A stretch of DNA of 64,000 bases from an uncultured Bacilli bacterium (GTDB lineage Bacteria > Bacillota_I > Bacilli_A > RF39 > UBA660), in the NCBI GenBank assembly GCA_947630575.1, contig CANRIB010000005.1:196-64195 (forward strand), read 5' to 3'. The notes beneath the pieces were generated by a model. It had not been told where the DNA came from and made no database searches. It saw nothing but the letters and a program-made list of their open reading frames with translations. Shown piece after piece: positions 18,459 to 55,011 of the stretch. How positions within the stretch are numbered: the stretch's first letter is position 1; every line of letters begins with the position of its first letter. A program made the translations under genes and the position numbers.

Positions 18459-19286
18459 TCACTTCCTTACAAAACTACAATAGTTCTCATAACGAGATTT
18501 TAAGATTTTTCCAGCATTAACTAATTTTTTAATTTCACAATCTTCTTCTTTGATATGACTACAATCTTTATAAAGACAATTAGAATTAGCAAATTCTTTA
18601 AAAGCATTTTTTATTTCTTCATTACTATATTTTTCTAAAGATAAAGATGAAAAACCCGGTGTATCGGCGATATAAAAATCTTTTATTAAATGAAATTCCG
18701 TATGACGAGTCGTATGTTTTCCACGTCCTAAGGCATAGCTAATTTCTCCTTCAAGAAGATTTTTGCTACTATCTATTTTGTTAATTAAACTAGATTTACC
18801 GGCCCCAGTTTGACCAGTTAAAACTATATATTTGTTTTTTAGATACGCTGTTAATTGAGGAATTTCGGTATTAGTAAAAGTTTTAATACCAATATTTTCA
18901 TAATATTTTCTTAAATTATTTAGGTCTTGTAATTCTTTTTTAGTTGCTTTATCTAATTTAGTAAAACAAATAATGGGTTTAATATGGGCTAAAATAATGC
19001 TTACAATTTCTTTATCTAATAAATTTAAAGATAAATCTGGTTCTTTTAGACTAGTAACAATTAAAGCAATATCAACATTGCTTACTTTGGGACGATCAAG
19101 TTCATTTTGACGCTTCATAATATCTAAAATATAATTATTTTTTTCATCTATTTCTACTTCATCACCAACAAGAGGAGTAAGCTCTAATTTACGAAACTTA
19201 CCCCTCGGTTGACAATCATAATAAGTATTAGCTACTTTAACACGATAAATATTGCTAATATTTTTGATAATTTTACCTTTTAACAT
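18459..19286 (-). CDS. rsgA: Ribosome small-subunit-dependent GTPase A
   Basis: 275 aa with circularly permuted GTPase motifs (FTKLD, GQTGAGKSSLIN), C-terminal Zn-finger Cys/His, and conserved position after prkC. Confidence 0.85.
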   Translation of the reverse strand: MLKGKIIKNISNIYRVKVANTYYDCQPRGKFRKLELTPLVGDEVEIDEKNNYILDIMKRQNELDRPKVSNVDIALIVTSLKEPDLSLNLLDKEIVSIILAHIKPIICFTKLDKATKKELQDLNNLRKYYENIGIKTFTNTEIPQLTAYLKNKYIVLTGQTGAGKSSLINKIDSSKNLLEGEISYALGRGKHTTRHTEFHLIKDFYIADTPGFSSLSLEKYSNEEIKNAFKEFANSNCLYKDCSHIKEEDCEIKKLVNAGKILKSRYENYCSFVRK

Positions 19287-21052
19287 AAGCCCCCACAGTC
19301 GTCGCCATCATCACTTTGGTTGGTGTCAGCTTCGGCAACACGAATTTTAAATTTTTGGCCTGATACAATAGTATAACCTTTAGGTTTAGATTGATAATAA
19401 ATAGTTCCAGGTTCATATTCATCAGTCGTAATATATTCGATTTCTAAATCAAGTTCATAAGTATCGGCAAAATCTTGAACATCTGTGGTAGTATAAGAAC
19501 CATCTGTAAAATCAGGATAATATCTAATAACATTAGGATAATACAAAATAATTGTTTCCCCAACAGAAAGTTTTTTACCAGCTTCCACAGATTGACCAAT
19601 TATTTCAGTTGGTTCATATTCATGGTCATCATCTTCATCAACATCTTTGGCATCAAGTCGGACAATAAGGCCTAAAGCTTCTAGACGACCTTTTATTTCA
19701 TTATAATTTTCGCCGGTATAATCTTCAATTGTTACTTGAGTATCCCCAATGGATACACGAAGAGATATTTCAGTTCCTTCTTTTCTTTTAGAACCAATTT
19801 CCGGTTTGGTACCAATTACTTTTCCCTCTTCTATTTCCGCGGATGATTCTTCAATATATTCATCTAAAACGATAAAACCTTTATCTTGTAATATTTCAAT
19901 AGCTTTTTTGATTGACATATCAGAAACATCGGGGATGGTTGCTTGTTTACCACTTTTAGTTATAATAGGAATTAAAACAACTACCGATGTTATTCCTACG
20001 ATTAAGCCTGTAAATATAAAGGCTAGTATTATTAATAATCTATTTTGTTTTTTCAAATCGTCACCCGTTATCTTTTTGGCGATAACTTCTTCTTTCTCTT
20101 CTTTTTTCTTTTTTTCATTTGAATCTTCAAGGTCTTTTTCTTTCTCTTTTTTGACCATTTTCATAATTTTAGCATCATCAGTATCAGTTTCTGGATATTT
20201 ATATTCAATAATTGGTTCTAAAGCCCGGGAATCATCTAAACAAGTTTTTAAGTCATCATGCATCTCTCTAGCATCATTATATCTGTTTTTGGGATTTTTA
20301 GCAGTAGCTTTTTTGATAATATTAGCAATAGAATTAGGAACATTAGGAAGTTTTTCTCTAATATCAGGTAAAGGTTCCTTTAAATGTTTTAAAGCAATTT
20401 CAACCGCATTATCACCTTTAAAAGGAAGTTCTCCAGTGATTAGTTCATACATCACAATTCCCATCGAATAAATATCACTTTGGAGAGTTGATCCTTGACC
20501 ACTTGCTTGTTCTGGTGGTAAGTAGTGAACACTGCCCATCACTGAATTAGTTTGAGTAAGCTGGGTAGCATTCATAGCCATCGCAATACCAAAATCAGTA
20601 ATTTTTACTAAACCATTTTCTAAAATCATGATGTTTTGAGGTTTAATATCCCGATGGATAATATATGAGTCATGGGCAACACTCATACCATCGGTGATTT
20701 GCAGCATAATATCTACTGCTTCACTTAGTGTTAATTTACCACGTTTTTTGAGTAAATTTTTTAAGTGTTTTCCTTCAATATACTCCATAACAATATAGTA
20801 TTCACCATTATCTTCACCAACATCATAAACTTCAACTATATTGGGATGGGCAAGACTACTTGCCGCGAGCGCTTCTCTTTGAAAACGTCTTACAAATTTT
20901 TCATCATTAGATAAATCTCCTCTTAAAATTTTAACGGCGACATTTCGATCTAAAATTGTATCATAAGCAAGATAAACATTAGCCATACCACCTTCACCAA
21001 TTGATTTAATTATTTGGTAACGGTCGCTAATTTTTTGCCCTTTCATTATCAC
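19280..21052 (-). CDS. prkC: Ser/Thr protein kinase with PASTA repeats
   Basis: Hanks kinase motifs (GEGGMANVY, HRDIKPQN, DFGIA), a TM segment, and extracellular PASTA-like repeats (IPDVSDMSIKKAIEILQDKGF). Confidence 0.9.
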   Translation of the reverse strand: MIMKGQKISDRYQIIKSIGEGGMANVYLAYDTILDRNVAVKILRGDLSNDEKFVRRFQREALAASSLAHPNIVEVYDVGEDNGEYYIVMEYIEGKHLKNLLKKRGKLTLSEAVDIMLQITDGMSVAHDSYIIHRDIKPQNIMILENGLVKITDFGIAMAMNATQLTQTNSVMGSVHYLPPEQASGQGSTLQSDIYSMGIVMYELITGELPFKGDNAVEIALKHLKEPLPDIREKLPNVPNSIANIIKKATAKNPKNRYNDAREMHDDLKTCLDDSRALEPIIEYKYPETDTDDAKIMKMVKKEKEKDLEDSNEKKKKEEKEEVIAKKITGDDLKKQNRLLIILAFIFTGLIVGITSVVVLIPIITKSGKQATIPDVSDMSIKKAIEILQDKGFIVLDEYIEESSAEIEEGKVIGTKPEIGSKRKEGTEISLRVSIGDTQVTIEDYTGENYNEIKGRLEALGLIVRLDAKDVDEDDDHEYEPTEIIGQSVEAGKKLSVGETIILYYPNVIRYYPDFTDGSYTTTDVQDFADTYELDLEIEYITTDEYEPGTIYYQSKPKGYTIVSGQKFKIRVAEADTNQSDDGDDCGGLC

Positions 21053-31713: not shown

Positions 31714-31742
31714 TAGAAAAAAAGCTATTCAAGGATAGCTTT
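31714..31742 (-). terminator. Rho-independent terminator of alaS
   Basis: Perfect 8-bp stem aaagctat/atagcttt with a 6-nt loop, enclosing the TAG stop, followed by a U-run on the minus strand. Confidence 0.65.
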
Positions 31743-33476
31743 AATTCTTCTTACACCAGCACTGCTCGCTTCTTCTTTAATAATTTTAAATTTTCCTAAT
31801 TCGCCAGTATGTTGAACGTGAGGTCCACCACATATTTCTTTAGAAACATCTCCGATAGAATAAACATTAACTATATCGGCATATTTTTCAATAAACATAG
31901 CTTCAGCACCACTTGCTACAGCGTCTTTTTTAGACATTGTTTCCATTGTAACAGGAAGGTCTTCCATGATCCATTCATTTACTAAAGCTTCAACGCTGCG
32001 TTTTTCTTCATCAGTAAGCTTGTGGTCACAAGAGAAATCAAAACGCATTCTTTCACTAGTGATGTTACTACCCTTTTGATGAACATCTTTACTTACAATT
32101 TTCTTTAAAGCCGCATTTAAAAGATGGGTTGCAGTATGATATTTGGTTTCTATTTCACCCGATGATGCTAGACCACCTTTAAATTTACCAGCAGAAGCCG
32201 TACGAGATAATTCTTGGTGAGCCTTAAATTTTTCTTTAAAGCCCTCTATATCTACAGAAAGACCATTTTCTTTTGCCATTTCTTCAGTTAATTCAATAGG
32301 AAAACCATAAGTATCGTATAATTTAAAAGCATTATCTTTATCAATTATTTTACTATCTAAATTCTTTAAAAGTTTAGAAAATTCTTTTAAACCTTTTTCT
32401 AAGGTACGATTAAATTTAAGACCTTCATTTTTTAAAACTTCTAATACTACATTTTTATTAGTTTTGATTTCTTCATAATAATCTTCATATTTTTTAATTA
32501 TTTCTAAAGCTATTTGTTCCATAAAATTGCTGTTGGTATCTATTTCTAGTTTTTTAGCATGACGGATAGCGCGTCTAATTAATCTTCTTAAAATATAACC
32601 TTGATCGGTATTACTTGGTTTAATGCCAGCATAATCAGCACTGATAAATACCGCCGTACGAATATGATCGGCGATAATACGCATACTAATTTCATTGCCT
32701 TGATATGGTTTACCACTTATTTCTTCTATTTTGGCAATTATATCTTTCCAAATTGATGTTTCATAATTATCTGTGACACCTTCAAGGACGGCTACAACTC
32801 TTTCAAGTCCCATCCCGGTGTCAACATTTTTTTGAGGTAACTCTGTTATTTTGCCATCTTTGTCTTTATTAAATTCCATAAAAACATTATTCCAAATTTC
32901 CACCCAACGTTCATCGCTAGGATCAAATTTATCTGGAATTGGGTCTTCACTTCGGAAATAGAAAATTTCAGTATCGCCTCCACATGGTCCTGAATCACCT
33001 GCAATCCAAAAGTTATCTTCTACTCCAAGATAGGCGATACGATTATCACTAATCCCTAAAGAACGCCAAACATTGGCCGCAACTTCATCTCTTGGAATAT
33101 CCTCATTACCAGCAAAAACAGTAACGGCTAATCTTTCAACAGGTATTTTTAATACTTTAGTTAAAAATTCAAAACTATAGCCGATACTCTCTTTTTTAAA
33201 ATAATCGCCAAGACTCCAGTTTCCTAACATTTCAAAGAAAGTATGATGGGTTTTATCCCCAATACTATCTAAATCTGTTAGACGAACGCATTTTTGGTAA
33301 TCGCATAGTCTAGTTCCTTCTGGATGTTTTTTGCCCATTAAATAGGGGATTAAAGGTTGCATACCTGCAGTATTAAATAATACAGAAGGATCATTTTCCG
33401 GAATTAAAGGAGCACTAGGAATTTGAACGTGTCCTTTACTTTTAAAAAATTCAATAAATTCATTTTTTAGATTCAT
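31725..33476 (-). CDS. alaS: Alanine--tRNA ligase, short form lacking the C-Ala domain
   Basis: 583 aa with N-terminal FIEFFKSKGHVQIPSAPLIPENDPSVLFNTAGMQP and editing-domain HxxxH/CxxxH motifs (HTATHLLNAAL, CGGPHV). The ORF ends right after the editing domain. Confidence 0.85.
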   Translation of the reverse strand: MNLKNEFIEFFKSKGHVQIPSAPLIPENDPSVLFNTAGMQPLIPYLMGKKHPEGTRLCDYQKCVRLTDLDSIGDKTHHTFFEMLGNWSLGDYFKKESIGYSFEFLTKVLKIPVERLAVTVFAGNEDIPRDEVAANVWRSLGISDNRIAYLGVEDNFWIAGDSGPCGGDTEIFYFRSEDPIPDKFDPSDERWVEIWNNVFMEFNKDKDGKITELPQKNVDTGMGLERVVAVLEGVTDNYETSIWKDIIAKIEEISGKPYQGNEISMRIIADHIRTAVFISADYAGIKPSNTDQGYILRRLIRRAIRHAKKLEIDTNSNFMEQIALEIIKKYEDYYEEIKTNKNVVLEVLKNEGLKFNRTLEKGLKEFSKLLKNLDSKIIDKDNAFKLYDTYGFPIELTEEMAKENGLSVDIEGFKEKFKAHQELSRTASAGKFKGGLASSGEIETKYHTATHLLNAALKKIVSKDVHQKGSNITSERMRFDFSCDHKLTDEEKRSVEALVNEWIMEDLPVTMETMSKKDAVASGAEAMFIEKYADIVNVYSIGDVSKEICGGPHVQHTGELGKFKIIKEEASSAGVRRIKAILE

Positions 33477-33477
33477 T

Positions 33478-34005
33478 TTACTTCTCTCTTTCTAAACAAG
33501 AAATTACTTTATCACTTAAAGCATTTTTATTATCGTTGGTTATTATGAAATCAAAATTATCATAATTTTCTAAGGCTGTTTCGGTGATGTGCATTTGTTC
33601 TTTAATGCTTAGTTTGCTTGGTTCGAATTGATTAATGACATACATAGATATACAATCATTATACTTCTTTTTAAATTCTTCTATCTCTTCTGGAAGTCTT
33701 ACATCACTAATAATAACAATATCATAGTAAAGTTCATATATTTTAATATCTTCCATTAAACGATTAATAAGCATTAAAGGTAAGCCCATATTTTCACGAA
33801 TAGTTACCCCGATGTCTTGTAAAAAACGTCGTGGTTTAGGTTCTTCGCCATTCCAGTTTAAAACTTCTTGGGCATACATTTTTAAATATTTACTAAATTC
33901 GGTAATTAGCACTCTTTTACCAAAAGAAGAATAATATTCTTTAATAATATTGGCAACTTCACCTTTACCACTTCCAGATTTACCGGCCACTAAAAATATT
34001 TTCAT
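33478..34005 (-). CDS. P-loop kinase-like protein (dNMP/nucleoside kinase-like)
   Basis: 175 aa with Walker A GKSGSGKGEV at the N-terminus. Its stop lies 1 nt from the alaS start. Confidence 0.5.
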   Translation of the reverse strand: MKIFLVAGKSGSGKGEVANIIKEYYSSFGKRVLITEFSKYLKMYAQEVLNWNGEEPKPRRFLQDIGVTIRENMGLPLMLINRLMEDIKIYELYYDIVIISDVRLPEEIEEFKKKYNDCISMYVINQFEPSKLSIKEQMHITETALENYDNFDFIITNDNKNALSDKVISCLEREK

Positions 34006-36049: not shown

Positions 36050-36238
36050 TTAATAATTATTTCTATGTTTTTTGGCGTTTCTTATTTGTTCTTTCTTTTC
36101 ATTTCTTCTACGAACGCCTGGTTTTTCGTAATGCTTTCTTTTTTTTAGCTCAGAAGGGACACCGCTTCGGGCAACTTTGGATTTAAATTTTTTTAATGCT
36201 CCATCAACGTCTCCATTTTTTACTACTACTTTAGTCAT
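36050..36238 (-). CDS. rpsU: 30S ribosomal protein S21
   Basis: 62-aa basic protein (KHYEKPGVRRRNEKKEQIRNAKK). Confidence 0.85.
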   Translation of the reverse strand: MTKVVVKNGDVDGALKKFKSKVARSGVPSELKKRKHYEKPGVRRRNEKKEQIRNAKKHRNNY

Positions 36239-36314: not shown

Positions 36315-36527
36315 TTATTCGGACTTTTTCGTGTTTTCTTCGTCTTCGATAACTTTTTTAGATAGATGGTAGCTAGCCAATTCTTCTTTAATATCAGTTT
36401 TAAGAGTGTTTAAAAAACTTTTTTTGTAGTTATTAATCATTAAGACAGATAACATCATAATTATAAATATTAAGAAAAATGAATATACCATATACATAGA
36501 GGCAAAACCTTTTTTCATACTATTCAC
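36315..36527 (-). CDS. Small single-pass membrane protein
   Basis: 70 aa with one TM (VYSFFLIFIIMMLSVLMI) and an acidic tail. Lies immediately downstream of the bacteriocin-peptide terminator. An immunity role is speculation only. Confidence 0.45.
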   Translation of the reverse strand: MNSMKKGFASMYMVYSFFLIFIIMMLSVLMINNYKKSFLNTLKTDIKEELASYHLSKKVIEDEENTKKSE

Positions 36528-36572: not shown

Positions 36573-36731
36573 TTAATTTGGATAACAATAGTTTTTAGTT
36601 TTGGCACGTCTAATAGATGAACCTATATCTTTGCCAAAGTCAATGATGGTAGTAAATACACGAATTACTGCAGTTATGAAAGCAGCGTTTACACCACCTT
36701 CGATAGTTAATAATTCATTATTACTTAGCAT
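36573..36731 (-). CDS. Double-glycine leader bacteriocin-like precursor, peptide 3 (52 aa)
   Basis: MLSNNELLTIEGG|VNAAFITAVIRVFTTIIDFGKDIGSSIRRAKTKNYCYPN. Translated by hand; the start follows the peptide-2 stop by 2 nt. Not in the ORF track. Confidence 0.7.
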   Translation of the reverse strand: MLSNNELLTIEGGVNAAFITAVIRVFTTIIDFGKDIGSSIRRAKTKNYCYPN

Positions 36732-36733
36732 AA

Positions 36734-36883
36734 TTAATTACATTTATTAGGGTGAATATAGCCATAAATTACGGAAGCTATAAATACTCCAGCCGCGGCT
36801 ACTCCTAATAATCCCATCTTTAAAACTGCTGATAATGCTCCACCATTTACTTTTACTAAAGTGCTCTTTTCTAATATATCCAT
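36734..36883 (-). CDS. Double-glycine leader bacteriocin-like precursor, peptide 2 (49 aa)
   Basis: MDILEKSTLVKVNGG|ALSAVLKMGLLGVAAAGVFIASVIYGYIHPNKCN with GxxxG-like glycine spacing. The ATG overlaps the peptide-1 stop (TAATG) and is preceded by AAGGTGG. Confidence 0.7.
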   Translation of the reverse strand: MDILEKSTLVKVNGGALSAVLKMGLLGVAAAGVFIASVIYGYIHPNKCN

Positions 36884-37005
36884 TATTTAGCCACCTTTCT
36901 AAAAACTACTTTAAAACTAATAACACTAATTAAAATATGTGTTAGAATGCTGATGATACCTCCACCAGTACATTCTAGCAAATTTTTCTTGGCAATCTTT
37001 TCCAT
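36883..37005 (-). CDS. Double-glycine leader bacteriocin-like precursor, peptide 1 (40 aa)
   Basis: MEKIAKKNLLECTGG|GIISILTHILISVISFKVVFRKVAK. AAAGGAAG SD lies 5 nt upstream of the ATG at 37005. Confidence 0.65.
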   Translation of the reverse strand: MEKIAKKNLLECTGGGIISILTHILISVISFKVVFRKVAK

Positions 37006-37019
37006 ATAATACTTCCTTT

Positions 37020-37424
37020 CTAAAACATTTTTTCTTTTAATTTGGTTATTATTCTTTGTTTATTGTAATAAAAAGTTATATCTATTATTTCGTTATCTTG
37101 ATATTTAGCAGAACATTTTATGGTTAATTCTTTGTAACTAATCATATTTTCTTTATCTACTTTAATTATTTCTTGTTCTATTTCGTAATTAGTTTTTTTA
37201 TGGTTAAAAGAAATTTCTGTTATATCAATATTACTAGGAATAAATGTAGTTATTAAACCATTTTCAACATAACCTTTAGTTTGGTAATAATCATATATTT
37301 TAATTTGAGTAAGGAAATAGCTTAAGATAAGTATTAAGGCTGTAAATAAAATAACTATAACCCAGACAATATTTAATGGTAAAATGCGTTTAAAGGTATA
37401 TTTATTTTCGAAAATATTATTCAT
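37020..37424 (-). CDS. Small membrane-anchored accessory protein of the bacteriocin exporter (unusually short)
   Basis: One N-terminal TM (IVWVIVILFTALILILSYFL) followed by a beta-rich segment. Sits between the exporter and the peptides, where LcnD/ComB-type accessory genes lie, but is only ~134 aa. ATG at 37424; the track TTG is at 37439. Confidence 0.5.
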   Translation of the reverse strand: MNNIFENKYTFKRILPLNIVWVIVILFTALILILSYFLTQIKIYDYYQTKGYVENGLITTFIPSNIDITEISFNHKKTNYEIEQEIIKVDKENMISYKELTIKCSAKYQDNEIIDITFYYNKQRIITKLKEKMF

Positions 37425-39465
37425 ATTCGGCAACCTCAATTACTTTAGGAAATAAATCACTTAAATTTTTATGAGAAACATATATTAAAGTTATATTTGG
37501 GAATAGATGTATGATATTGTTTAATATTTCTCTTTCAAGTGTTTCATTTACTTCACTTAAAGCTTCATCTAAAATCATTATATGGCCTTTTTTTAATAGA
37601 GCTCGAGCTAAGATAATTCTTTGTCTTTCTCCCCCACTTAGATTGTTAGAAGCAGCATTAATTATAGTTTCATAACGATTAGCCCGTTTATTAATTATTT
37701 CATCAATATGACATATTTTACTTACTTTATCTAATTCAGAATCGGGAATATCACGATAACAAAGAATATTTTCTTTGATACTGCCCGTGAATAATTGTTC
37801 TTCTTGACCAACATAACAAATATTGTTTCGAAGAGAATCTAAAGAACAATCTAATTCATTATGACCTCCTATAAAAATACTTCCAGAATAACCTTCATAT
37901 ATGCGATATAAAAGCTTACAAATGGTACTTTTGCCACTTCCACTTTTACCATGTAAAAATACTTTTTCATTAGGTAATATATCAAAAGTTATATTCTTGA
38001 TAACATCTTTATATTGGTTATAAGAGAAAGTTACATTTTTTAAAGATATACTATTATCTTTAATATTAAAGCCTCGATTATGGGTTTCTTCGGGTATATT
38101 TAGAAACTCTCCTAGTTTTTTAAATGAAGCTTTTAAATAATTATATTTGGGTAAGAGCTCGATTAAATCTTTGATAGGATCAAACAGGTAGAGAATAATA
38201 CTATTAAAAGTTATTAAGTTTAGTAATGCTAATTTGTTTTTCGCTATTAAATAAATACCAAAGGTTAAAATTAGAAATAAGCCTACCTCATAGATAAAAT
38301 CTTTAAACAAATTGATTTTATTTAATAACTTAGTTAAATTAAAATTACTTTTTAAAAAACTTATTAGTTTACTTTCTAACCGAATTAAAAACTTCTCCTC
38401 CAAATTTAAGTTTTTAATACTATTATTAAGTTCAACGTTTTCAATTAAAATAGCATTAAACTCAGTTGCTTTATCAATGTTTTCTTTAATATGGCGATAT
38501 ATAATTTTATTAAAAATTAAACTACCGACAATATAAATGCCTATTACTAAACAAAGAAGAAAAAATAATTGGGCATTTATAAAGTATAAGACTATACCAG
38601 ATGTCATGACTAAAATGAGATTCAAAATGAAATTAGTAAATATCTCTGATAATAAAGATTTAATTTCACTTAATTCTTCAACGCGAGATATTATTTCACC
38701 TGTCGTTCGATTTTGCATGAACTTTAAAGGAAGGTTAAATATGTGTTTAAGAAAACTGGTAAACAATTCTAAATCAATATTTTTATTAAAATAATTTAAA
38801 TAATAAACTTTAAAAAAATTAAAGATAACTTTTAAGAAAGTTAAACTACCAAATAATATTATAATAAATTTTAAAAAATTTAAATCGCTTCCTTGTTCTA
38901 TTTGAGAAACTGCAATTTGAAAATAAAAACTATTAAAGATGGCTAGAATAATAACTAGGAAATTAACTAGACAGATACTAAGAAATAATTTTTTATTTTG
39001 ATGCAGAAGTTTGAAAAATATATCAAAGATGGTTGTTTCTTTTTCAAACTTAATAATTTCTGAGATAGGCATGGCGAGTATAAGGACATTATCCCAGATG
39101 GACAAAAAATCTTCTTTTTTCATTTTAACTTTGCCTTTAGCAGGGTCCATGAGATAAATGTGCTTATTTGTAATTTTATAGATAACAACAAAATGCTGCA
39201 GACCATTTTTTAAAACAACATGGGCAATCGCAGGGAAATAAATATTTTTATCATTAATATCTGTTACTTTTACACCCATAGATTCAAAACCATATTTTTT
39301 TAAAGCACTAATTAAATGAAAAGCAGTAGTTCCGTTGATCGTGGTAACTGTGTCTTCTCTTATTTTTTCAACAGGAACATAGCCACCGTAGTATTTAATT
39401 ATACAGGAAATACAACACGCGCCACAGTCCTTTAAATCTCTTTGAATTACTTCTTCAATTTTCAT
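37417..39465 (-). CDS. Bacteriocin ABC exporter with N-terminal C39 peptidase domain
   Basis: C39 motifs DCGACCISCI (Cys), HFVVIYK (His) and MDPAKG. Six-TM region. Walker A GKSGSGKST, signature LSGGERQR, Walker B IMILDEA. ATG at 39465 is preceded by GGGAGG. Confidence 0.9.
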   Translation of the reverse strand: MKIEEVIQRDLKDCGACCISCIIKYYGGYVPVEKIREDTVTTINGTTAFHLISALKKYGFESMGVKVTDINDKNIYFPAIAHVVLKNGLQHFVVIYKITNKHIYLMDPAKGKVKMKKEDFLSIWDNVLILAMPISEIIKFEKETTIFDIFFKLLHQNKKLFLSICLVNFLVIILAIFNSFYFQIAVSQIEQGSDLNFLKFIIILFGSLTFLKVIFNFFKVYYLNYFNKNIDLELFTSFLKHIFNLPLKFMQNRTTGEIISRVEELSEIKSLLSEIFTNFILNLILVMTSGIVLYFINAQLFFLLCLVIGIYIVGSLIFNKIIYRHIKENIDKATEFNAILIENVELNNSIKNLNLEEKFLIRLESKLISFLKSNFNLTKLLNKINLFKDFIYEVGLFLILTFGIYLIAKNKLALLNLITFNSIILYLFDPIKDLIELLPKYNYLKASFKKLGEFLNIPEETHNRGFNIKDNSISLKNVTFSYNQYKDVIKNITFDILPNEKVFLHGKSGSGKSTICKLLYRIYEGYSGSIFIGGHNELDCSLDSLRNNICYVGQEEQLFTGSIKENILCYRDIPDSELDKVSKICHIDEIINKRANRYETIINAASNNLSGGERQRIILARALLKKGHIMILDEALSEVNETLEREILNNIIHLFPNITLIYVSHKNLSDLFPKVIEVAEYE

Positions 39466-39621
39466 GTTTTTTCCTCCCTTCACCTTTATATATTACGGGA
39501 AGATGCCCATTTTCCTTTTTTATTTGGAAATTTAGGACCAAAAACAAATATTTAGGACATGGTTCGACATTTTTTTTATTTTTTTTAGGTATAATAGCTA
39601 ACTTAAGAAAGGAGGAATTTT

Positions 39622-40077
39622 ATGCAAAATAATAAATTGTTGTTATCTTTAAGAGTTAAAGATAATTTAAATCAACAAGAAATGGCGGATATTTTAAATA
39701 TTTCTTTAAAAACATATCAACTTTATGAAGATGGAATTAGACCAATGAAATTAGAAGAGATAAATTTGTTAAGTAATCGTTATAAAGTTTCTTTTAATGC
39801 TCTTTTTAATCTTACAAAAAGTACTAAATATTATAATACAGAAATAAATATTGATTATAAATATTTAAAATTTAGTTTAAGATATATAAGAAGAATGGCT
39901 AGAATACCGATTAATAATCTTTCAAAAATACTTCATACTTCCCCTTCTTCAATTATGAAATATGAAAAAGATCCAACCAAAGTAAGTATTACTTATTTGT
40001 ATAATTTTGCGAAATATTTTAATGTTTCTATTGATTATATGTGTGGAAAAACATTAAAAAAAGAAGTTTTTCAATAA
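39622..40077 (+). CDS. XRE-family regulator with two HTH domains, divergent from the bacteriocin operon
   Basis: 151 aa with the same two-HTH layout and length as ORF 1840..2292 (QQEMADILNISLKTYQLYED and NNLSKILHTSPSSIMKYEKD). SD is AGGAGG. Confidence 0.75.
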   Translation: MQNNKLLLSLRVKDNLNQQEMADILNISLKTYQLYEDGIRPMKLEEINLLSNRYKVSFNALFNLTKSTKYYNTEINIDYKYLKFSLRYIRRMARIPINNLSKILHTSPSSIMKYEKDPTKVSITYLYNFAKYFNVSIDYMCGKTLKKEVFQ

Positions 40078-41808: not shown

Positions 41809-42633
41809 TTAATCAATAATTATAACATCATTATAATCTTTTTCGATAGATTTGACAAGATAACTTACATTTAAAAAGCCACCTTTATCAATATATAACG
41901 CATAATTTTCGGCATTTAAATTATTTAGAGTTTCCGGAATGTCTATTACTTCTACTTCTTCAGTAATTTTTTCGCCATCTTCTTCTTTTTCAAGCGTTAC
42001 TTTACTTTGTTTAGTATTTAATCTTTCTTGAATTTTTTCTTTTATTTTAGTTATATTTAAGTTATATAATTGAAGTAAATCAGCATTAGTAAGTAGTTCT
42101 CCTGTTTTAGTATCAAAAACATAGGCTACACTGGTAAGATATTTTTCCCCATTAAAACAATCAAAAGAATAATTATCTTTTAAAATAGTAGCATAGTTTT
42201 GATAAAAATATCGGGTATATTTAGCATATTTCGCTTCATAGATGCCAGTTTCTTTATAGCTTATTTTATTTTCTTCTTCCTCAGTTAAGGTTACATCATC
42301 TAGTTTTTTAAAAGAATCTCTTAAAAGAGCCATTTCTTCATTTAATTTTATTTCGGTAGTACGAGCACTAGAACTATCAATATTTATTTTAATATCTTGA
42401 TAATTTATACCATATAATTCATTTTTTAAATCATTATTTAAATAATAAATATATTCTTCACTAGGATTTAGTTTTAAATTCTTTTCTATTGCGACTTCCC
42501 TCGTTTCTTCTTTTGTTATAGGAGCAGGCGAACTCGTAAAATATTCCATTAAAAAGAAACCACCCACCACTAAACAAACAAGAAAGAATAGGAATATCAT
42601 CCCATATAATTTACCATTTCTAATATCACTCAT
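41809..42633 (-). CDS. Membrane-anchored hypothetical protein (possibly DUF3298/RsiV-C-like)
   Basis: 274 aa with N-terminal TM (MIFLFFLVCLVVGGFFLM). The family assignment is a weak recollection only. Confidence 0.45.
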   Translation of the reverse strand: MSDIRNGKLYGMIFLFFLVCLVVGGFFLMEYFTSSPAPITKEETREVAIEKNLKLNPSEEYIYYLNNDLKNELYGINYQDIKINIDSSSARTTEIKLNEEMALLRDSFKKLDDVTLTEEEENKISYKETGIYEAKYAKYTRYFYQNYATILKDNYSFDCFNGEKYLTSVAYVFDTKTGELLTNADLLQLYNLNITKIKEKIQERLNTKQSKVTLEKEEDGEKITEEVEVIDIPETLNNLNAENYALYIDKGGFLNVSYLVKSIEKDYNDVIIID

Positions 42634-42646
42634 AACTTAACACTCC

Positions 42647-43237
42647 TTATTTTAAATAATCTTGTAACATCATTTTTAAGTTATTTTTCTTTAAACCAAC
42701 TTTTAGACTATCCCAATATTCTTCAGGTTTTATATTGCCCATATTAATAGAAGTTTCACTGTCAAAACTAATTATTTTACCATCTTTTACAATAAGTAAA
42801 GTTGGAGCATATATATCTTGGTTTCCTTCGTCTAAAACAGGCAAGAAATTACTTAATTTTACAACAATACTTTGATAAGTAGCGTTTTTCATGTTTCGAT
42901 CTTCATAGAAATCATAATATAATATTTTAGTTACGCCTACTTCTTTAGCAACATCATTTAACATTTGAGCATAATAGCCTGTCCAATTATTAGTTGGAAA
43001 GCCCATAAAAATTATCCCACTGCCATTTTTTAATAAAGCGTATATTTCTTTCGCATTAACATAAGTAAAAACATTATCTTTATTTACTAATGGATAATCA
43101 TGGTCAAATTTTTCATTGTCTATTTCAACATTATTGCCAAAATCTTTATTTCCAATATAGATAAAAGCTAAGATAATTAATATAAATAAGATGCTTTGAA
43201 ATACTTTTTTGATATTTTTATGCATTTTCTTCACCAC
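42647..43237 (-). CDS. Membrane-anchored thioredoxin-fold-like protein without CxxC
   Basis: 196 aa with N-terminal TM. GIIFMGFPTNNWTGYY occupies the position of the WCxxC motif, and PTLLIVKDGKII is a Trx-like beta strand. Likely ATG at 43225. Confidence 0.4.
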   Translation of the reverse strand: MVKKMHKNIKKVFQSILFILIILAFIYIGNKDFGNNVEIDNEKFDHDYPLVNKDNVFTYVNAKEIYALLKNGSGIIFMGFPTNNWTGYYAQMLNDVAKEVGVTKILYYDFYEDRNMKNATYQSIVVKLSNFLPVLDEGNQDIYAPTLLIVKDGKIISFDSETSINMGNIKPEEYWDSLKVGLKKNNLKMMLQDYLK

Positions 43238-45483: not shown

Positions 45484-47442
45484 TTATTGGACTATGTAAG
45501 GGTTAGAACTTGTTCCTATATCTTCTCCATCAGTGAAGGTAAATGCTGTATCGGCTTTTAGATTTATTACAGGACGGACACCTAACGTGTCGTTACCGTG
45601 GTCGTAGTAAAGCTGGCCAGTCGAAGACACATGGAATACGTCAGCCGCGCTACTGTAAAAGTCATACGGAGACATTGTCCAATAGGATGAATTTGTATAT
45701 AGCCAATATTTATTATTGTTTTGACGAAAAAATCCTCCGGCATATATTACTTCGTCACTTGTTATTAAGCCTACTGGATTTTTTAATTTTTTATTTCCTA
45801 TTATTGTTTTTCTGTCTTTTGTTGTTGCTCCTTTGGAATTTTGTCCGGTAAACAAATCTCTTGTTAAATTTGCACATTTTAAGGTTGGTTCTTGTGTTGA
45901 ATCCCAATTAGTACCTTCACTCCGCCATACCCGATGGACTGGAGCATATGCAGTTTGCTGTTTTGAATATCCTCCTTTGCTTTTTCCAAGATAACTTCCG
46001 TGGTCTTCGTCTGCTAATTCTCTGTCATTACAAAAACCTGTATCTACATCTATTTTATCTACAATATCAACACTTCCTAAATTTGTTTTCTCCCACCATT
46101 TATCTAATTCAGCTTTTATTGTACTATCACTTAAATTTTGATGTGCATCTGCGTAACTACTCGTACTGCCTCCATTGTTCATGAATCCTACATATGTATT
46201 ATCGTCGTAAGTTTCATTATATTTTTGAATAGTTGTATCGTCAGAATATGTAGTTGTTATTTGAGTGCCTATACCTGTTGTATCTGGAACAGTTGAACCT
46301 ATTCCAGAATATATTAATCTTATTGTTCCATTACCATTTATTCGGATGATTCTCCACCATATAGCTTTTCCGTCTTCTTGTCCAAACTTTACCCAATTAT
46401 TATCTACTGTTCCTCTAAATACATAACTAGTTCCAAAATCGTCTTCTGCACTATATACTCCGTTTTGATTCATATTTATAACAGAAGAACCACAGTTACT
46501 CCCTAAATCATCTTTACAGCTTGGCCCTGTTACTGTTGTTATTGTTCCAAGAGAATTTCCAAGTTTTAAATCAGCTAGCCTTTCTTCTGCAGTAAGTGTT
46601 GTATCTATATCAAAATATAAATAACAAGCTGTTCCACTTTTACTTACATTTGATAATATTATTTCATTATTCTCTATTCTTACTTTTACTTCTTCATTAT
46701 TACATTTTGTTTCTTTTTGATTTAATACATATCCCTCTTTGGGTATTTCTTCTACTTCTTCATATTTTCCTTCTTCCGTTTCTTGGTAAAATGCTACTAA
46801 GTTTATATCGGCTTTTGTATTACTTATCTCTCCATATACTCTTCCTTTAAATCCTTCTCCTATATCTTTACTTTGATTTCCACTATTTGGATATTCTACT
46901 ATGATATAATAATATTTCATTGTTCCTTCTTCTTTGGCTGTTATAAATTCTGTATTAGTTATTTTTATTGTTTGTTCTTCTGTTGTTTTTGGTATCTCTC
47001 CTTCATTTATTGGCTCTCCTAATTCTTCTATATTTGATGTACATACTTCATTTAATTGTTGGGCTCCATTTACTACTTTCTTTTTCTTTTCACAATTTAA
47101 GGTTATCTCTTTTTCTTCTTCTGATACATATACTTTATATTTTAAATTTGTATTTAAATTATTTGTTCCTATCCATGTTAAGTTATAAGCTATAAGTTCA
47201 TTATTACCTGTTGCAGTTGCTGTTACTTTAGATAGAGTTTGATGTCCTGGATATATATCTACATCACCAAACTCTATATTACCACTTATATCTAATGTTG
47301 AACCATTTACTGTTGCCGTTCTTCCTTCTGTTGTTGCTCCTGTTCCTTTAAAAATAGTTTTACCTACAAAATATGCTAAAGATACACCTATTCCTAATAT
47401 TAATACACTTAACAATATTATTACTCTTTTATTCTTTTTCAT
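45484..47442 (-). CDS. Membrane-anchored or secreted protein, paralog B (SipW/TasA-like signal region, Ig-like middle, conserved C-terminal lectin-like domain with hypervariable cassette)
   Basis: ATG at 47442 (MKKNKRVIILLSVLILGIGVSLAYFVGK) follows AAAGGTGAG. The LAYF motif recalls SipW-dependent signal peptides. The C-terminal ~330 aa are paralogous to ORF 167..1684. Confidence 0.8.
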   Translation of the reverse strand: MKKNKRVIILLSVLILGIGVSLAYFVGKTIFKGTGATTEGRTATVNGSTLDISGNIEFGDVDIYPGHQTLSKVTATATGNNELIAYNLTWIGTNNLNTNLKYKVYVSEEEKEITLNCEKKKKVVNGAQQLNEVCTSNIEELGEPINEGEIPKTTEEQTIKITNTEFITAKEEGTMKYYYIIVEYPNSGNQSKDIGEGFKGRVYGEISNTKADINLVAFYQETEEGKYEEVEEIPKEGYVLNQKETKCNNEEVKVRIENNEIILSNVSKSGTACYLYFDIDTTLTAEERLADLKLGNSLGTITTVTGPSCKDDLGSNCGSSVINMNQNGVYSAEDDFGTSYVFRGTVDNNWVKFGQEDGKAIWWRIIRINGNGTIRLIYSGIGSTVPDTTGIGTQITTTYSDDTTIQKYNETYDDNTYVGFMNNGGSTSSYADAHQNLSDSTIKAELDKWWEKTNLGSVDIVDKIDVDTGFCNDRELADEDHGSYLGKSKGGYSKQQTAYAPVHRVWRSEGTNWDSTQEPTLKCANLTRDLFTGQNSKGATTKDRKTIIGNKKLKNPVGLITSDEVIYAGGFFRQNNNKYWLYTNSSYWTMSPYDFYSSAADVFHVSSTGQLYYDHGNDTLGVRPVINLKADTAFTFTDGEDIGTSSNPYIVQ

Positions 47443-47567
47443 TATCTCACCTTTTACTATAGACAAATATGTCCCATATCATAATTATAGAATAACATAT
47501 TTGGGGCAAACTTGTCAATGGCTTATTGGGGCAAATTTGGTAATATTTTTATAGTGAGGTGCTAAAT

Positions 47568-51914: not shown

Positions 51915-52490
51915 ATGAAGTATCCTGGTAATATTAAAAAGACATTTAAAACTAATATTAATTATCGAAATCGCGGGATGGATTTAGAAGCCTTAATAAA
52001 TGATGCTTGTAAGTATTATTTAGAAAATGATATGGCAGTTATATATAAAAAACCCACCCCAATTGGGATAGTAGAAGTTGATTATAGTAAAATGCTTATT
52101 AAGAAAGCTTATTTTAAAGAAGCCTCAACTTTAGATTATAATGGATTATATAAAGGAAAGTATGTCGAATTTGATGCGAAAGAAAGTAAGAATAAAACTT
52201 CTTTTCCTTTAGGTAATATTCATGAACATCAAATTAAACATATTAGAAATATTATTAGACATGGGGGTATTGCTTTTTTAATAATAAGTATGAATGATGG
52301 TTTTTATTTATTTAAGGGAGAAGATTTAATAGAATTTGTAGATACCCAAGAAAGAAAAAGTATTCCTTTTAATATAATAGATAGTAAAGGTGTTAAATTA
52401 GTATATAATTATAATATTGGGATTAATTATTTAGAAGGAATAAATATAGCTTATAAGGAGTTGATAGAAAATGAAAGTACCAAAAATTAA
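51915..52490 (+). CDS. recU: Holliday junction resolvase RecU
   Basis: 191 aa with NRGMDLEALIN and YVEFDAKES...HQIKH motifs. Followed by ponA as in Bacillus. Confidence 0.85.
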   Translation: MKYPGNIKKTFKTNINYRNRGMDLEALINDACKYYLENDMAVIYKKPTPIGIVEVDYSKMLIKKAYFKEASTLDYNGLYKGKYVEFDAKESKNKTSFPLGNIHEHQIKHIRNIIRHGGIAFLIISMNDGFYLFKGEDLIEFVDTQERKSIPFNIIDSKGVKLVYNYNIGINYLEGINIAYKELIENESTKN

Positions 52491-55011
52491 AAAAGAAAAG
52501 AATAAAGAAAAAAAGAAAAGAAAGTTTAGTATTAAAAATGCGATATTAATATTAGTTATTAGTACGGGTATTATGGTAGCGTCAATTGTTTTAGCTTTTG
52601 TATTATATGTTATTGTAACATCGCCAGATTTTGTGCCAAAAGAATTATATAGTAAACAATCAACATCAATTTATGCGAAAGATGGAACAACAGAGATTGC
52701 TAGAGTTGGAAATGATGATATTGAGCTTATTACTTATAATGATTTACCAGAAGTAGTAATAGATGCTTTAATAGCAACAGAAGATTCAAGATTTTTCCAA
52801 CATAATGGGTTTGATGCAGCGAGATTTTTTAAGGCATCTTTAGGACAACTTGCCGGCCAAAATGCTGGTGGTGCTTCGACCCTTTCCATGCAAGTTATAA
52901 GAAATAAGTTTTCGACTAAAGAAACTCATGGTATTAAAGGTATTGTAAGAAAGTTTTCAGATATATATATGTCAGTATTTAAATTAGAAGCAGTATATAC
53001 TAAAGAAGAAATTATTGAGTTTTATTTAAATAGTCAGTGGTTAGGTCAAGGTACTAGTTATTATAATGGTTCCATAACAGGAATTGAACAAGGTTGTCAA
53101 TATTACTTTGGAAAATCTGTATCAGATTTAACTTTACCAGAAGCTAGTCTAATTGTAGGTATGTTTAATAACCCTTCTTATTATAATCCTTATACTAATC
53201 CTGAGGGAGCTAGTGAAAGAAGAAGTGTAGTATTAAATTTAATGGTTAGGCATGGTTATATTACAGAAGAAGATAGAAAATTTGCCGAAAGTATTGATGT
53301 TCAAAGTTTACTTGTAGACCATAGTAAAGAAGAAACTGGTAAATATCAAGCATTTATTGACTTTGTAATGGATCAAGTAGAAAAAGAAACGGGAGATAAT
53401 CCAAGAAAAGTACCGATGGCAATATATACTACTCTTGATACAAGTATTCAAGATGTCTTAGATGATTTAGCGGAAGGTAAGTTATGGAAATTCCCAAATG
53501 ATACAGTGCAATTTGGGATGGCGGTTACAAGTACCGAAGATGGTTCAGTTCTTGCTTTATCGCCTGGAAGAAATTATGTCCCAACAGGTACTTTAAGAGC
53601 CGTAGGTTCAGATATATATCAAACTGGTATTAAAAGACAACCGGGATCAACAGCAAAAATAATATTTGATTATGGTCCTTATATTGAATATTTACATGGT
53701 TCTACCGGAACAATATTTATAGATAGACCTTGGACTTATAGTAATGGAACTAGTGTGCGTAACTACGATTATGGTTATGCAGGACCTATTACAATGCGCG
53801 AAGCTTTAGTAGATTCCAGAAATATTCCGGCAGTTCAAGCATTTCAAATGGTAGCAGAACAAGTTGGAGCAGATAAAATCGCGGATTTTGCACATAATTT
53901 AGGAATTAATTATGGAAAAGATTTATATGAATCAATCGCGATTGGAGGTGTTAATTGTGCAGACCCTCTTACAATGTCAGCAGCTTATGCCGCATTTGGA
54001 CGTGGTGGTGAATATATTGAACCTTATACATTTACCAAAATAGTTTATTTAGAAAATGATACAGAATATACGCATCCCGTAGAAAGAAAAAGAGTTATGA
54101 GTGAGCAAACAGCTTATTTAATAACGGATATGCTAGTTACAGGAGGAAGTCGAGGAGTTGGTGGTAATTTTTCTATCAGTGGAACTCAAATCGCCGCCAA
54201 AGGTGGAACAACTACCCTAGATAAAAAAACTGCAGATGCTTTAGGAGTTACAACTGAGGCGACTCCAGACCATTGGAATATTACTTACTCCCCTGACTAC
54301 TCTATTGCCTTATGGTATGGCTACGATAGCTTAGGACCTGGGAAACCTTATCTTACAAGTTCTAATGGTAACCCTGCCCGTCTAAATATTATGAAAGCCG
54401 TAGCACCTAAAATATATAAGAAAAATTCAAAGTTTAGTAAACCCTCGGGAGTGACATCCGTCACGATAGAAACCGAAACATATCCAACACAGCTAGCGAG
54501 TGAATATACTCCTAAGAAATTTAAATTAACAGAATATTATGAAAGTGGTTATGAACCTAGTGAGGTATCAACAAGATTTAGTGAACTTAAAAATCCAACA
54601 AATGGAAGTTATTCTTATGATGGAAGTTATATTACCCTATCATGGGACCCAATAGATACTCCAGATGCAATTAATCAAAGTTATATTGAAGAAATGTTTA
54701 ATGATAGTTATTGGAAGTTTTATAGTAAATATAAACAAACATATTATGATAGTAGACTTAAATATAATGCCGAAAATATGGGAACTATAGGTTATCAAAT
54801 ATATTTAAAAGATAATTATAGTGATACTTTTACAGATTTAGGATTTACAACAGAAACAAGTTTTTCTTATCCAGCAAGTTATAGTGGTGATGAATATACA
54901 TTTATTGTTAAATCAGCATATTCAATATTTAAAGATAATATGAGCAGTGGCTTAGAAATAGCATCACAATCAAGTTATGATACAAATATTGGAGATTTAA
55001 GTGGTTTTTAA
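52471..55011 (+). CDS. ponA: Bifunctional class A penicillin-binding protein (glycosyltransferase/transpeptidase)
   Basis: GT51 motifs (EDSRFFQHNGFD, GASTLSMQV) and transpeptidase motifs (STAK-type PGSTAKI, SRN, KGGTT). Long C-terminal extension. Confidence 0.9.
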   Translation: MKVPKIKKEKNKEKKKRKFSIKNAILILVISTGIMVASIVLAFVLYVIVTSPDFVPKELYSKQSTSIYAKDGTTEIARVGNDDIELITYNDLPEVVIDALIATEDSRFFQHNGFDAARFFKASLGQLAGQNAGGASTLSMQVIRNKFSTKETHGIKGIVRKFSDIYMSVFKLEAVYTKEEIIEFYLNSQWLGQGTSYYNGSITGIEQGCQYYFGKSVSDLTLPEASLIVGMFNNPSYYNPYTNPEGASERRSVVLNLMVRHGYITEEDRKFAESIDVQSLLVDHSKEETGKYQAFIDFVMDQVEKETGDNPRKVPMAIYTTLDTSIQDVLDDLAEGKLWKFPNDTVQFGMAVTSTEDGSVLALSPGRNYVPTGTLRAVGSDIYQTGIKRQPGSTAKIIFDYGPYIEYLHGSTGTIFIDRPWTYSNGTSVRNYDYGYAGPITMREALVDSRNIPAVQAFQMVAEQVGADKIADFAHNLGINYGKDLYESIAIGGVNCADPLTMSAAYAAFGRGGEYIEPYTFTKIVYLENDTEYTHPVERKRVMSEQTAYLITDMLVTGGSRGVGGNFSISGTQIAAKGGTTTLDKKTADALGVTTEATPDHWNITYSPDYSIALWYGYDSLGPGKPYLTSSNGNPARLNIMKAVAPKIYKKNSKFSKPSGVTSVTIETETYPTQLASEYTPKKFKLTEYYESGYEPSEVSTRFSELKNPTNGSYSYDGSYITLSWDPIDTPDAINQSYIEEMFNDSYWKFYSKYKQTYYDSRLKYNAENMGTIGYQIYLKDNYSDTFTDLGFTTETSFSYPASYSGDEYTFIVKSAYSIFKDNMSSGLEIASQSSYDTNIGDLSGF

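Follow-up and report, generated by a model that had tools for sequence, protein, structure and literature searches.

The closest described systems to the locus studied here are the class IIb bacteriocins, among them lactococcin G, enterocin 1071, plantaricin EF/JK, and lactobin A/cerein 7B. They are encoded by adjacent, co-translated genes for precursors with double-glycine (GG) leaders and are exported by ATP-binding cassette (ABC) transporters with a C39 peptidase domain. Their mature peptides are helical, 30–40 amino acids (aa) long, contain GxxxG-type motifs, and combine a hydrophobic with an amphipathic cationic partner. We know of no covalently linked class IIb pair, and no disulfide-linked two-peptide bacteriocin was found in literature searches. 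In a 64,000-nucleotide stretch of contig CANRIB010000005.1 from an uncultured Bacilli bacterium (in the following, the window), the gene of a peptidase-containing ABC transporter (PCAT) and a small accessory gene are followed on the minus strand by three short precursor genes, pep1, pep2, and pep3. The pep2 and pep3 genes share with class IIb bacteriocins the gene arrangement, the type of exporter, and the peptide design outlined above. They differ in that each product carries one conserved, co-varying cysteine near the C-terminus, and in that the locus has no immunity gene conserved throughout the family, is chromosomally fixed by rpsU, and encodes an accessory protein of about 134 rather than about 450 aa. 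Judged by sequence comparison, pep2 and pep3 belong to a large family of paired peptides that has not yet been named and that shares a conserved putative cysteine tether and predicted export by PCATs. The peptide genes and the element that follows them are as follows.

36883..37005, minus strand: pep1 precursor, 40 aa, consisting of a 15-aa GG leader and a 25-aa mature peptide

36734..36883, minus strand: pep2 precursor (family pepA), 49 aa, consisting of a 15-aa GG leader and a 34-aa uniformly hydrophobic helix

36573..36731, minus strand: pep3 precursor (family pepB), 52 aa, consisting of a 13-aa GG leader and a 39-aa amphipathic cationic helix

36546..36570, minus strand: intrinsic terminator, a hairpin with T-run (−12.8 kcal/mol, z = −3.97 against shuffles) that closes the operon

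A first-pass annotation of the window had translated these genes by hand as three tightly packed minus-strand open reading frames (ORFs) beside a C39-ABC exporter, each with its own Shine-Dalgarno sequence and a 13–15-aa GG leader with the usual hydrophobic spacing, and followed by a strong terminator. The coordinates and translations proved correct. The stop codon of pep1 and the start codon of pep2 overlap by 1 nt (TAATG), the pep2 stop is separated from the pep3 start by a gap of 2 nt, and the accessory gene ends 14 nt from pep1, with the exporter in the same operon. Shine-Dalgarno sequences are visible for pep1 (AAAGGAAG) and pep2 (AAGGTGG), so that this part of the annotation holds for two of the genes; pep3 has none of its own and is probably translationally coupled to pep2. 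The leader pattern, defined as GG at the leader end with hydrophobic residues at positions −4, −7, and −12, fits 3 of the 112 small ORFs with an ATG start in the window, and these are precisely pep1, pep2, and pep3, compared with a mean of 0.045 in shuffled windows. The pep3 leader is canonical (L−12, S−11, E−8, L−7, I−4, GG), and the −4 residue of the pep1 leader, Cys or Tyr, is slightly atypical. The annotated terminator was recovered as the hairpin listed above, and an equivalent hairpin is also located 3′ of pepB in the related loci L008 and L038. No structured RNA was found by Rfam between positions 34000 and 42000. Genes for modification enzymes of ribosomally synthesized and post-translationally modified peptides (lanthipeptide, sactipeptide, or glycocin type) are absent between the flanking housekeeping genes, both in the window and in the related loci whose gene lists were read.

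The same peptide trio is found in the same order in syntenic loci of related rabbit-gut lineages, represented by metagenome-assembled genomes (MAGs), in which the accessory protein is only 46–68% identical. The organism of the window is itself from a rabbit-gut metagenome. Across pep1–pep3 the ratio of nonsynonymous to synonymous substitution rates (dN/dS) is 0.15–0.32 at near-saturated dS values of 0.5–1.8 (Nei-Gojobori counts), with 0.20–0.32 for pep1, 0.19–0.27 for pep2, and about 0.15 for pep3, and the three reading frames are clearly under purifying selection. None of the strain variants has a disrupted ORF. Identical ORFs for pep1 and pep2 occur in public gene calls from sources including NCBI, and for pep3 from ENA and Logan only, in all cases without a name. 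A 270-nt contig from one RNA-seq run matches positions 36580-36849 at 98% identity, amid sparse contigs over the neighboring genes, which is a weak sign that the locus is transcribed. The genes are short and all their Pfam and NCBIfam matches are under cut-off, as would fit chance reading frames or decayed fragments 3′ of the exporter. This explanation is effectively refuted, with a negligible remaining probability, by the retention of the trio in many lineages, the low dN/dS values, the intact ORFs, a leader pattern far beyond chance, and a pepB profile that retrieves 429 homologous clusters. The view of the first-pass annotation that these are genuine double-glycine precursor genes beside a C39-ABC exporter is therefore upheld by the purifying selection together with the aligned catalytic residues of the exporter described below, and its own caveat, that homology might reveal fragments of degraded genes, was checked and is contradicted by the syntenic conservation, the substitution ratios, and the number of homologous clusters. 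Strain variants of pep3 (window 36627-36696, L005:419-577, and the contig of the RNA run) carry the substitutions A17S, F18L, and T20S, clustered at the mature N-terminus, plus D35G, with the C-terminal motif and the cysteine unaltered and a dN/dS of 0.58 in the closest comparison.

Homologue searches returned 9 clusters of pep2 type and 19 of pep3 type. A pep3-type profile searched against 1.84 billion representative proteins, clustered at 50% identity, matched 429 clusters at E ≤ 1e-3, of which 112 reach E ≤ 1e-10; nearly all have a length of 49–60 aa. Context look-ups and a genome scan revealed a recurrent module comprised of a PCAT, usually a single-transmembrane (TM) accessory protein of 123–140 aa, pepA, and pepB, with pepA and pepB adjacent or overlapping stop-to-start behind the PCAT in more than 20 lineages. 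The module was seen in MAGs of rabbit, human (Hadza, HGM), and rumen origin that are labeled 'Bacilli bacterium', 'Erysipelotrichaceae bacterium', or 'Tenericutes bacterium'; the genome scan covered two exact pepB motifs, so the taxonomic spread is under-sampled. Natural in-frame pepA-pepB fusions also occur (P0146, 102 aa, and P0155, 101 aa), and each half of these retains its own GG leader and cysteine. The pep1 gene is confined to the clade of the window, whose loci have frr, the AI-2E permease, and the XRE regulator as neighbors. Of the three genes it varies most, its only clade-wide invariants being the leader positions M1, L9, and GG, and it matches no family in Pfam or NCBIfam. The earlier description of a three-peptide set thus gives way to one of a widespread pep2 and pep3 pair, to which pep1 is a clade-specific, faster-evolving extra, and since pep1 is absent outside the clade, the pair would work without it.

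Mature pep1 (GIISILTHILISVISFKVVFRKVAK) is hydrophobic with a charge of +4. Mature pep2 is ALSAVLKMGLLGVAAAGVFIASVIYGYIHPNKCN and mature pep3 is VNAAFITAVIRVFTTIIDFGKDIGSSIRRAKTKNYCYPN, with net charges in the window clade of +2 and +4/+5, respectively. In the pepA family a leader of 14–15 aa precedes a mature part of 30–38 aa that is uniformly hydrophobic (mean hydrophobicity about 0.7, hydrophobic moment (μH) about 0.15) and ends in (S/G)-x3-G-x3-P-x2-C followed by 0–6 residues. In pep2 this motif reads S37xxxG41-x3-P45-x2-C48, in which G41 is invariant in the family and the conserved cysteine, two residues after the proline, is encoded at 36740-36742. In the pepB family a leader of 12–15 aa precedes a strongly amphipathic helix (μH up to 0.67) with an invariant G-x3-G, then S-(S/A)-I-R-R, exactly six residues, the cysteine, and 0–3 further residues; the invariant pep3 motif is G33xxxG37-SSIRR-x6-C49, with the cysteine codon at 36585-36587. 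An AlphaFold2 model of pepB, of modest confidence, places the helix from just past the GG to about eight residues before the C-terminus. The GxxxG-like spacing that the first-pass annotation had noticed in the second peptide is thus a conserved (G/S)xxxG motif, and it is present in both pep2 and pep3.

The cysteine is six residues past the RR in 56 of the 59 pepB representatives that fit the strict GSxIRR pattern. Both partners carry the conserved near-C-terminal cysteine in every one of about 30 locus and fusion sequences read, bar one lineage, and two of the pair sequences read hold one extra cysteine elsewhere. The exception is a lineage of three closely related contigs (L038:11372-11654, L040:11371-11653, and L042:11370-11652), in which both cysteines are lost: the last residues of pepA are -PKES, -PKEN, or -PKEG, and pepB is truncated three residues past the RR. 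No locus among those read has the cysteine in a single partner only. An inter-peptide link predicts paired loss, and the joint loss therefore supports such a link. The earlier suggestion that the cysteines of the second and third peptides could form an intermolecular disulfide gains comparative support from the paired conservation and the joint loss, and we consider it most likely, from this pattern, that the single cysteines of pep2 and pep3 connect the two peptides through a disulfide or a different shared thiol link.

The similarity of pepA and pepB to known class IIb families is weak and driven by the leaders. Subthreshold matches, largely leader-driven, were obtained to TIGR03949 in 14 of 19 pepA members (best E 4.9e-6) and to the lactococcin G-beta model in 11 of 18 pepB members; pep2 itself has subthreshold matches to Bacteriocin_IIc and TIGR03949. 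Scores on class IIb models are 19 bits for PF10439 (cut-off 27.1) and 13.8 bits for NF038034 (cut-off 37), and mature pep2 and pep3 stay below the cut-off of every curated family in Pfam and NCBIfam. Against PDB sequences, the pepB profile gave no match and the pepA profile gave only chance matches plus the CtA leader at E = 1. Literature searches on these peptides, their motifs, RF39 bacteriocins, and double-glycine peptides of Mollicutes returned nothing relevant beyond a table entry.

The proteins predicted to process and export the peptides are encoded directly upstream.

37417..39465, minus strand: PCAT exporter, 682 aa counted from MKIEE, with Peptidase_C39 (5.5e-35), ABC_membrane, and ABC_tran domains

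37020..37424, minus strand: accessory protein, 134 aa, with an N-terminal TM helix and an extramembrane beta domain of about 80 aa

The exporter shares its three-domain architecture and catalytic triad with PCAT1 of Clostridium thermocellum (4ry2), its closest solved relative (E 7e-109), and with ComA of Streptococcus (8hf4; E about 1e-84). The catalytic Cys (DCG), His (HFVV), and Asp (DP) align with those of PCAT1, and by analogy the exporter is predicted to cut the GG leaders and to export the peptides. It differs from PCAT1 and ComA in that it is partnered by a mini-accessory protein, not by one of ComB/LcnD type, and in that it lies under the cut-offs of the named NCBIfam subfamilies, with 388 bits on the bacteriocin_ABC model TIGR01193 (cut-off 524) and 339 bits on NF045998, the Mycoplasma Mbov_0121-family PCAT (cut-off 500).

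The accessory gene overlaps the ABC gene by 8 nt. Like LcnD, ComB, and HlyD, its product is encoded directly after the ABC gene and has an N-terminal TM anchor and an extracytoplasmic beta-rich domain; those proteins are about 400–470 aa long and contain coiled-coil, lipoyl, and beta-barrel parts, whereas the accessory protein of the window has neither a coiled-coil hairpin nor a lipoyl domain. An AlphaFold2 model (pLDDT 78.5) has a TM helix at residues 6–40 and a six-stranded beta domain at residues 44–121. No Pfam family and no HlyD match were found for the protein, and a PDB fold search with the model gave nothing significant, the best match being beta-2-microglobulin at E 0.05. Among low-ranked, non-significant local fold matches (E 0.5–0.9) were the beta-barrels of the membrane fusion proteins (MFPs) BesA (4kkt; root mean square deviation 3.8 over 79 columns) and Spr0693 (5xu0), a hint in the model of a likeness to the MFP barrel. 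On the NCBIfam model NF045999 (MAG1140_fam) the accessory protein scores 30.1 bits against a cut-off of 35, covering model positions 7–124 of 126, and NF045999 is matched by 5 of 13 accessory orthologues. Because both scores are under the equivalog cut-offs, the accessory protein and the exporter are, by profile comparison, remote homologues of the NF045999 and NF045998 families and not members; the resemblance consists in the nearly full-length alignment of the accessory protein to the MAG1140 model and the strong score of the exporter on the PCAT model. We infer from consecutive accession numbers alone that the Mycoplasma Mbov_0121 and MAG1140 families act as a gene pair, and no functional literature on either family was found. 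The first-pass annotation had called it unusual that a small accessory protein stands in for one of LcnD/ComB size. The replacement is real and is not unique, as it recurs in related loci and the protein is remotely similar to the MAG1140 family; in L017 and L028 no accessory gene is present between exporter and peptides. A role of the accessory protein as a thiol oxidoreductase was rejected because its sole cysteine, C104, is kept in close relatives only and is gone in L019, L024, and L025.

The remaining features of the locus concern its possible control and immunity.

39622..40077, plus strand: regulator, 151 aa, with two XRE-type helix-turn-helix (HTH) domains (Pfam HTH_3 twice, HTH_19), divergently oriented

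39466..39621, no strand assigned: intergenic region between regulator and exporter, putative promoter/operator from an alignment of seven lineages and a repeat scan

36315..36518, minus strand: orf67, a 67-aa single-TM protein (MKKGFASMYMVYSFFLIF...), after the terminator and with promoter-like sites of its own

36050-36238, minus strand: rpsU (S21), downstream of the peptide locus in the window

The genes neighboring the peptide locus are the XRE double-HTH regulator, the AI-2E-family permease, frr, rpsU, and yqeY. The divergent regulator is kept at the same position in all loci of the clade, contains no sensor or peptide-binding domain, and is a candidate repressor of the operon. Besides a TAATAT −10-like box, the intergenic region contains the TTGTCGAA..ATG motif and the Shine-Dalgarno sequence GAAGGGAG, both of which are invariant across seven lineages. 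In the window, the direct repeat GTCCTAAAT occurs twice, 20 nt apart, at 39530-39558. The intergenic motifs and the repeat are candidate operators for the double-HTH regulator. With respect to immunity, orf67 is 57–72% identical within the clade, missing in most of the distant lineages, and without a Pfam or NCBIfam family; it is the best immunity candidate in the window clade, and it may also be unrelated to the peptides. Its KGF-hydrophobic start faintly recalls a pseudopilin. In other loci (L031:3610-3774, L033:6153-6317, and L035:6144-6308), the end of pepB is overlapped by a conserved 54-aa ORF. The product combines an N-terminal TM segment with a pepB-like 'YDLGxxxGSNLRYLLKFGHFC' tail and has no GG leader, and from these features it may be a decoy or an immunity protein derived from the toxin partner.

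Taken together, these features suggest the following model, in which cleavage, export, disulfide formation, and killing activity of the pair are steps that we infer. The exporter, the accessory protein, pep1, pep2, and pep3 would be expressed as a five-gene operon, probably under the control of the divergent double-HTH XRE regulator. From family knowledge and the intact catalytic residues, the C39 domain would cleave the precursors after the GG, and the ABC part would export the mature peptides. Pep2 would act as a membrane-spanning hydrophobic helix and pep3 as an amphipathic cationic helix, the two forming an obligate pair and, through their probable translational coupling, being made in roughly equal amounts. 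The (G/S)xxxG motifs of both peptides would pack helix against helix, and the near-C-terminal cysteines would be linked by a disulfide or another shared thiol link. The pair would then permeabilize the membranes of competing bacteria as a class IIb-like two-peptide bacteriocin. Pep1 would be a third exported peptide, specific to the clade and acting as an enhancer, a separate bacteriocin, or an inducer, and orf67 may provide immunity in the window clade.

An antimicrobial function of the pair seems to us fairly probable from the sequence features, and a considerable set of observations weighs against it. With the adjacent AI-2E-family permease as a neutral anchor for the retrieval of metagenome contigs, the locus appeared fixed and not patchy: regulator and exporter were on 8 of the 8 anchor contigs that reach far enough, and on those extending further the accessory gene, a pep2-type peptide, and orf67 were on 5 of 5. 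BLAST matches were found for pep1 on 4 of these 5 and for pep3 on 2 of 5, and an ORF scan of four of them (the three misses and L044) recovered all three peptide ORFs in each. In very distant lineages (L021, L029, L030, L032-L036, L050, and the window clade) the module lies directly upstream of rpsU, with L017/L018 and L028 as exceptions, and its own upstream neighbor varies among frr/AI-2E/XRE, gerE-gerM/spoIIIAH, and rpmF. Because the adjacency to rpsU persists across deep lineages with differing upstream neighbors, long vertical inheritance is suggested rather than a typical mobile bacteriocin island, which is unusual for bacteriocin loci and not unheard of. Furthermore, no immunity gene is common to all members of the family, other lineages having different neighbors or none; many distant members of the pair have net charges of 0 to −2; and the mature parts of pep2 and pep3 reach none of the curated class IIb cut-offs (TIGR03949, NF038034/35, PF10439, PF11632). 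The correlated loss of the cysteines is a single evolutionary event and as such suggestive rather than statistical, and the gut lumen is reducing, so that an extracellular disulfide may be unstable, transient, or replaced by another thiol-based interaction. Finally, the RNA evidence is one low-depth contig and may reflect DNA carry-over. A mobile-element origin was rejected, as a tblastn search of plasmid and phage collections with one family member as the query gave no match and the GC content is not distinct from that of the flanks.

Much of this would be accounted for if pep2 and pep3 formed an exported, possibly disulfide-linked heterodimer with a non-antagonistic role in the core of the lineage, inherited vertically with the PCAT and the mini-accessory protein, for example as a part of the membrane or envelope, as a factor linked to development or sporulation, or as a self-signal, with the bacteriocin look reflecting no more than a shared export route. 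Under this explanation the locus would be expected on every syntenic contig fetched by the neutral anchor and upstream of rpsU in many deep lineages whatever the upstream gene, as is observed. The purifying rather than diversifying selection, the invariable presence of a single pair without paralogue arrays, the lack of a family-wide immunity gene, the neutral or acidic character of distant members, and the resemblance of exporter and accessory protein to NCBIfam-defined families of minimal-genome Mycoplasma (NF045998 at 339 bits, NF045999 at 30 bits) point in the same direction. Some bacteriocin loci are, however, also species-core, and the combination of a hydrophobic and an amphipathic partner with GxxxG motifs is typical of pore-forming two-peptide bacteriocins. 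The explanation is further weakened by the lack of a receptor, histidine kinase, or RRNPP-type sensor nearby, the sole regulator being a sensor-less XRE protein. The locus genes also evolve faster than their neighbors: in three successively more distant lineages, identity to the window falls from 90 to 89 and 78% for the ribosome recycling factor, compared with 81, 72, and 55% for the ABC protein, 82, 65, and 57% for pep2, and 68, 46, and 36% for the accessory protein, as expected for secreted or antagonistic products. On balance we regard a non-antagonistic role as unlikely while giving it appreciable weight, and the same tentative standing is accorded to its wider form, in which the module, anchored beside rpsU, is an ancient, vertically inherited core system of a large clade of small-genome gut Bacilli, Mycoplasma has kept remote relatives of the exporter and the accessory protein, and the exported, covalent Cys-Cys heterodimer acts in the producer's own membrane, envelope, or development.

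A separate question is the role of pep1, which could be an induction peptide of pheromone type, like PlnA or EntF, exported by the same PCAT and autoregulating the operon, rather than a third toxin subunit. Its mature length of 25–28 aa, cationic C-terminus, and position ahead of the structural genes resemble those of induction factors, it is the least conserved of the three peptides and absent from all lineages outside the clade, and one pep1 homologue marginally matches the EntF induction-factor model (E 0.089). The lack of a histidine kinase, response regulator, or RRNPP receptor in or near the locus argues against a classical pheromone circuit, and the XRE regulator has no peptide-binding domain. 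In addition, the grand average of hydropathy of pep1, about 1.3–1.4 in the window and its closest relatives and lower in distant ones, is more like that of a membrane-active peptide. We think it improbable that pep1 serves as an inducer of this kind.

If the pair is a bacteriocin as favored here, it would represent a large unnamed two-peptide family, with at least 429 clusters at 50% identity for the pep3 type alone, and the first known to us in which the two halves are tied by a conserved cysteine pair. The producers would be small-genome gut Bacilli from rabbit, human, and ruminant hosts, an uncultured group of whose ecology very little is known, and the mature peptides, with 34 and 39 residues, would offer a compact, synthesizable scaffold for narrow-spectrum antimicrobials. 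If the pair is not a bacteriocin, leader-cleaving exporters could serve a housekeeping-like peptide system, which would change the reading of 'bacteriocin' clusters in metagenomes, and the core-system interpretation would, if true, add a new functional class of PCAT cargo.

Other genes in the window bear on the host. A class A penicillin-binding protein (PBP) is encoded at 52471-55011 on the plus strand and a PASTA-domain Ser/Thr kinase at 19280-21052 on the minus strand. The presence of both indicates peptidoglycan synthesis by the host, although one relative is labeled 'Tenericutes', and a wall-less host of Mollicute type was rejected on these two genes and the standard genetic code. The gene for ribosomal protein L20 (34086-34619, minus strand; also L019:9116-9679 and L051:7094-7639) encodes a product of 177–187 aa whose C-terminal extension is identified by Pfam in related loci as Rho_N (SAP-like), an unusual fusion. 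The alanyl-tRNA synthetase (31725-33476, minus strand) has 583 aa and, in related loci, consists of the catalytic domain and tRNA_SAD only; the usual C-terminal region is missing, which fits a reduced genome. Four further minus-strand ORFs, at 41809-42633, 42647-43237, 45484-47466, and 167-1684 (274, 196, 660, and 505 aa, respectively), match no Pfam family at E ≤ 1e-5. The 274-aa and 196-aa ORFs are syntenic in related loci and may encode clade-specific envelope proteins.

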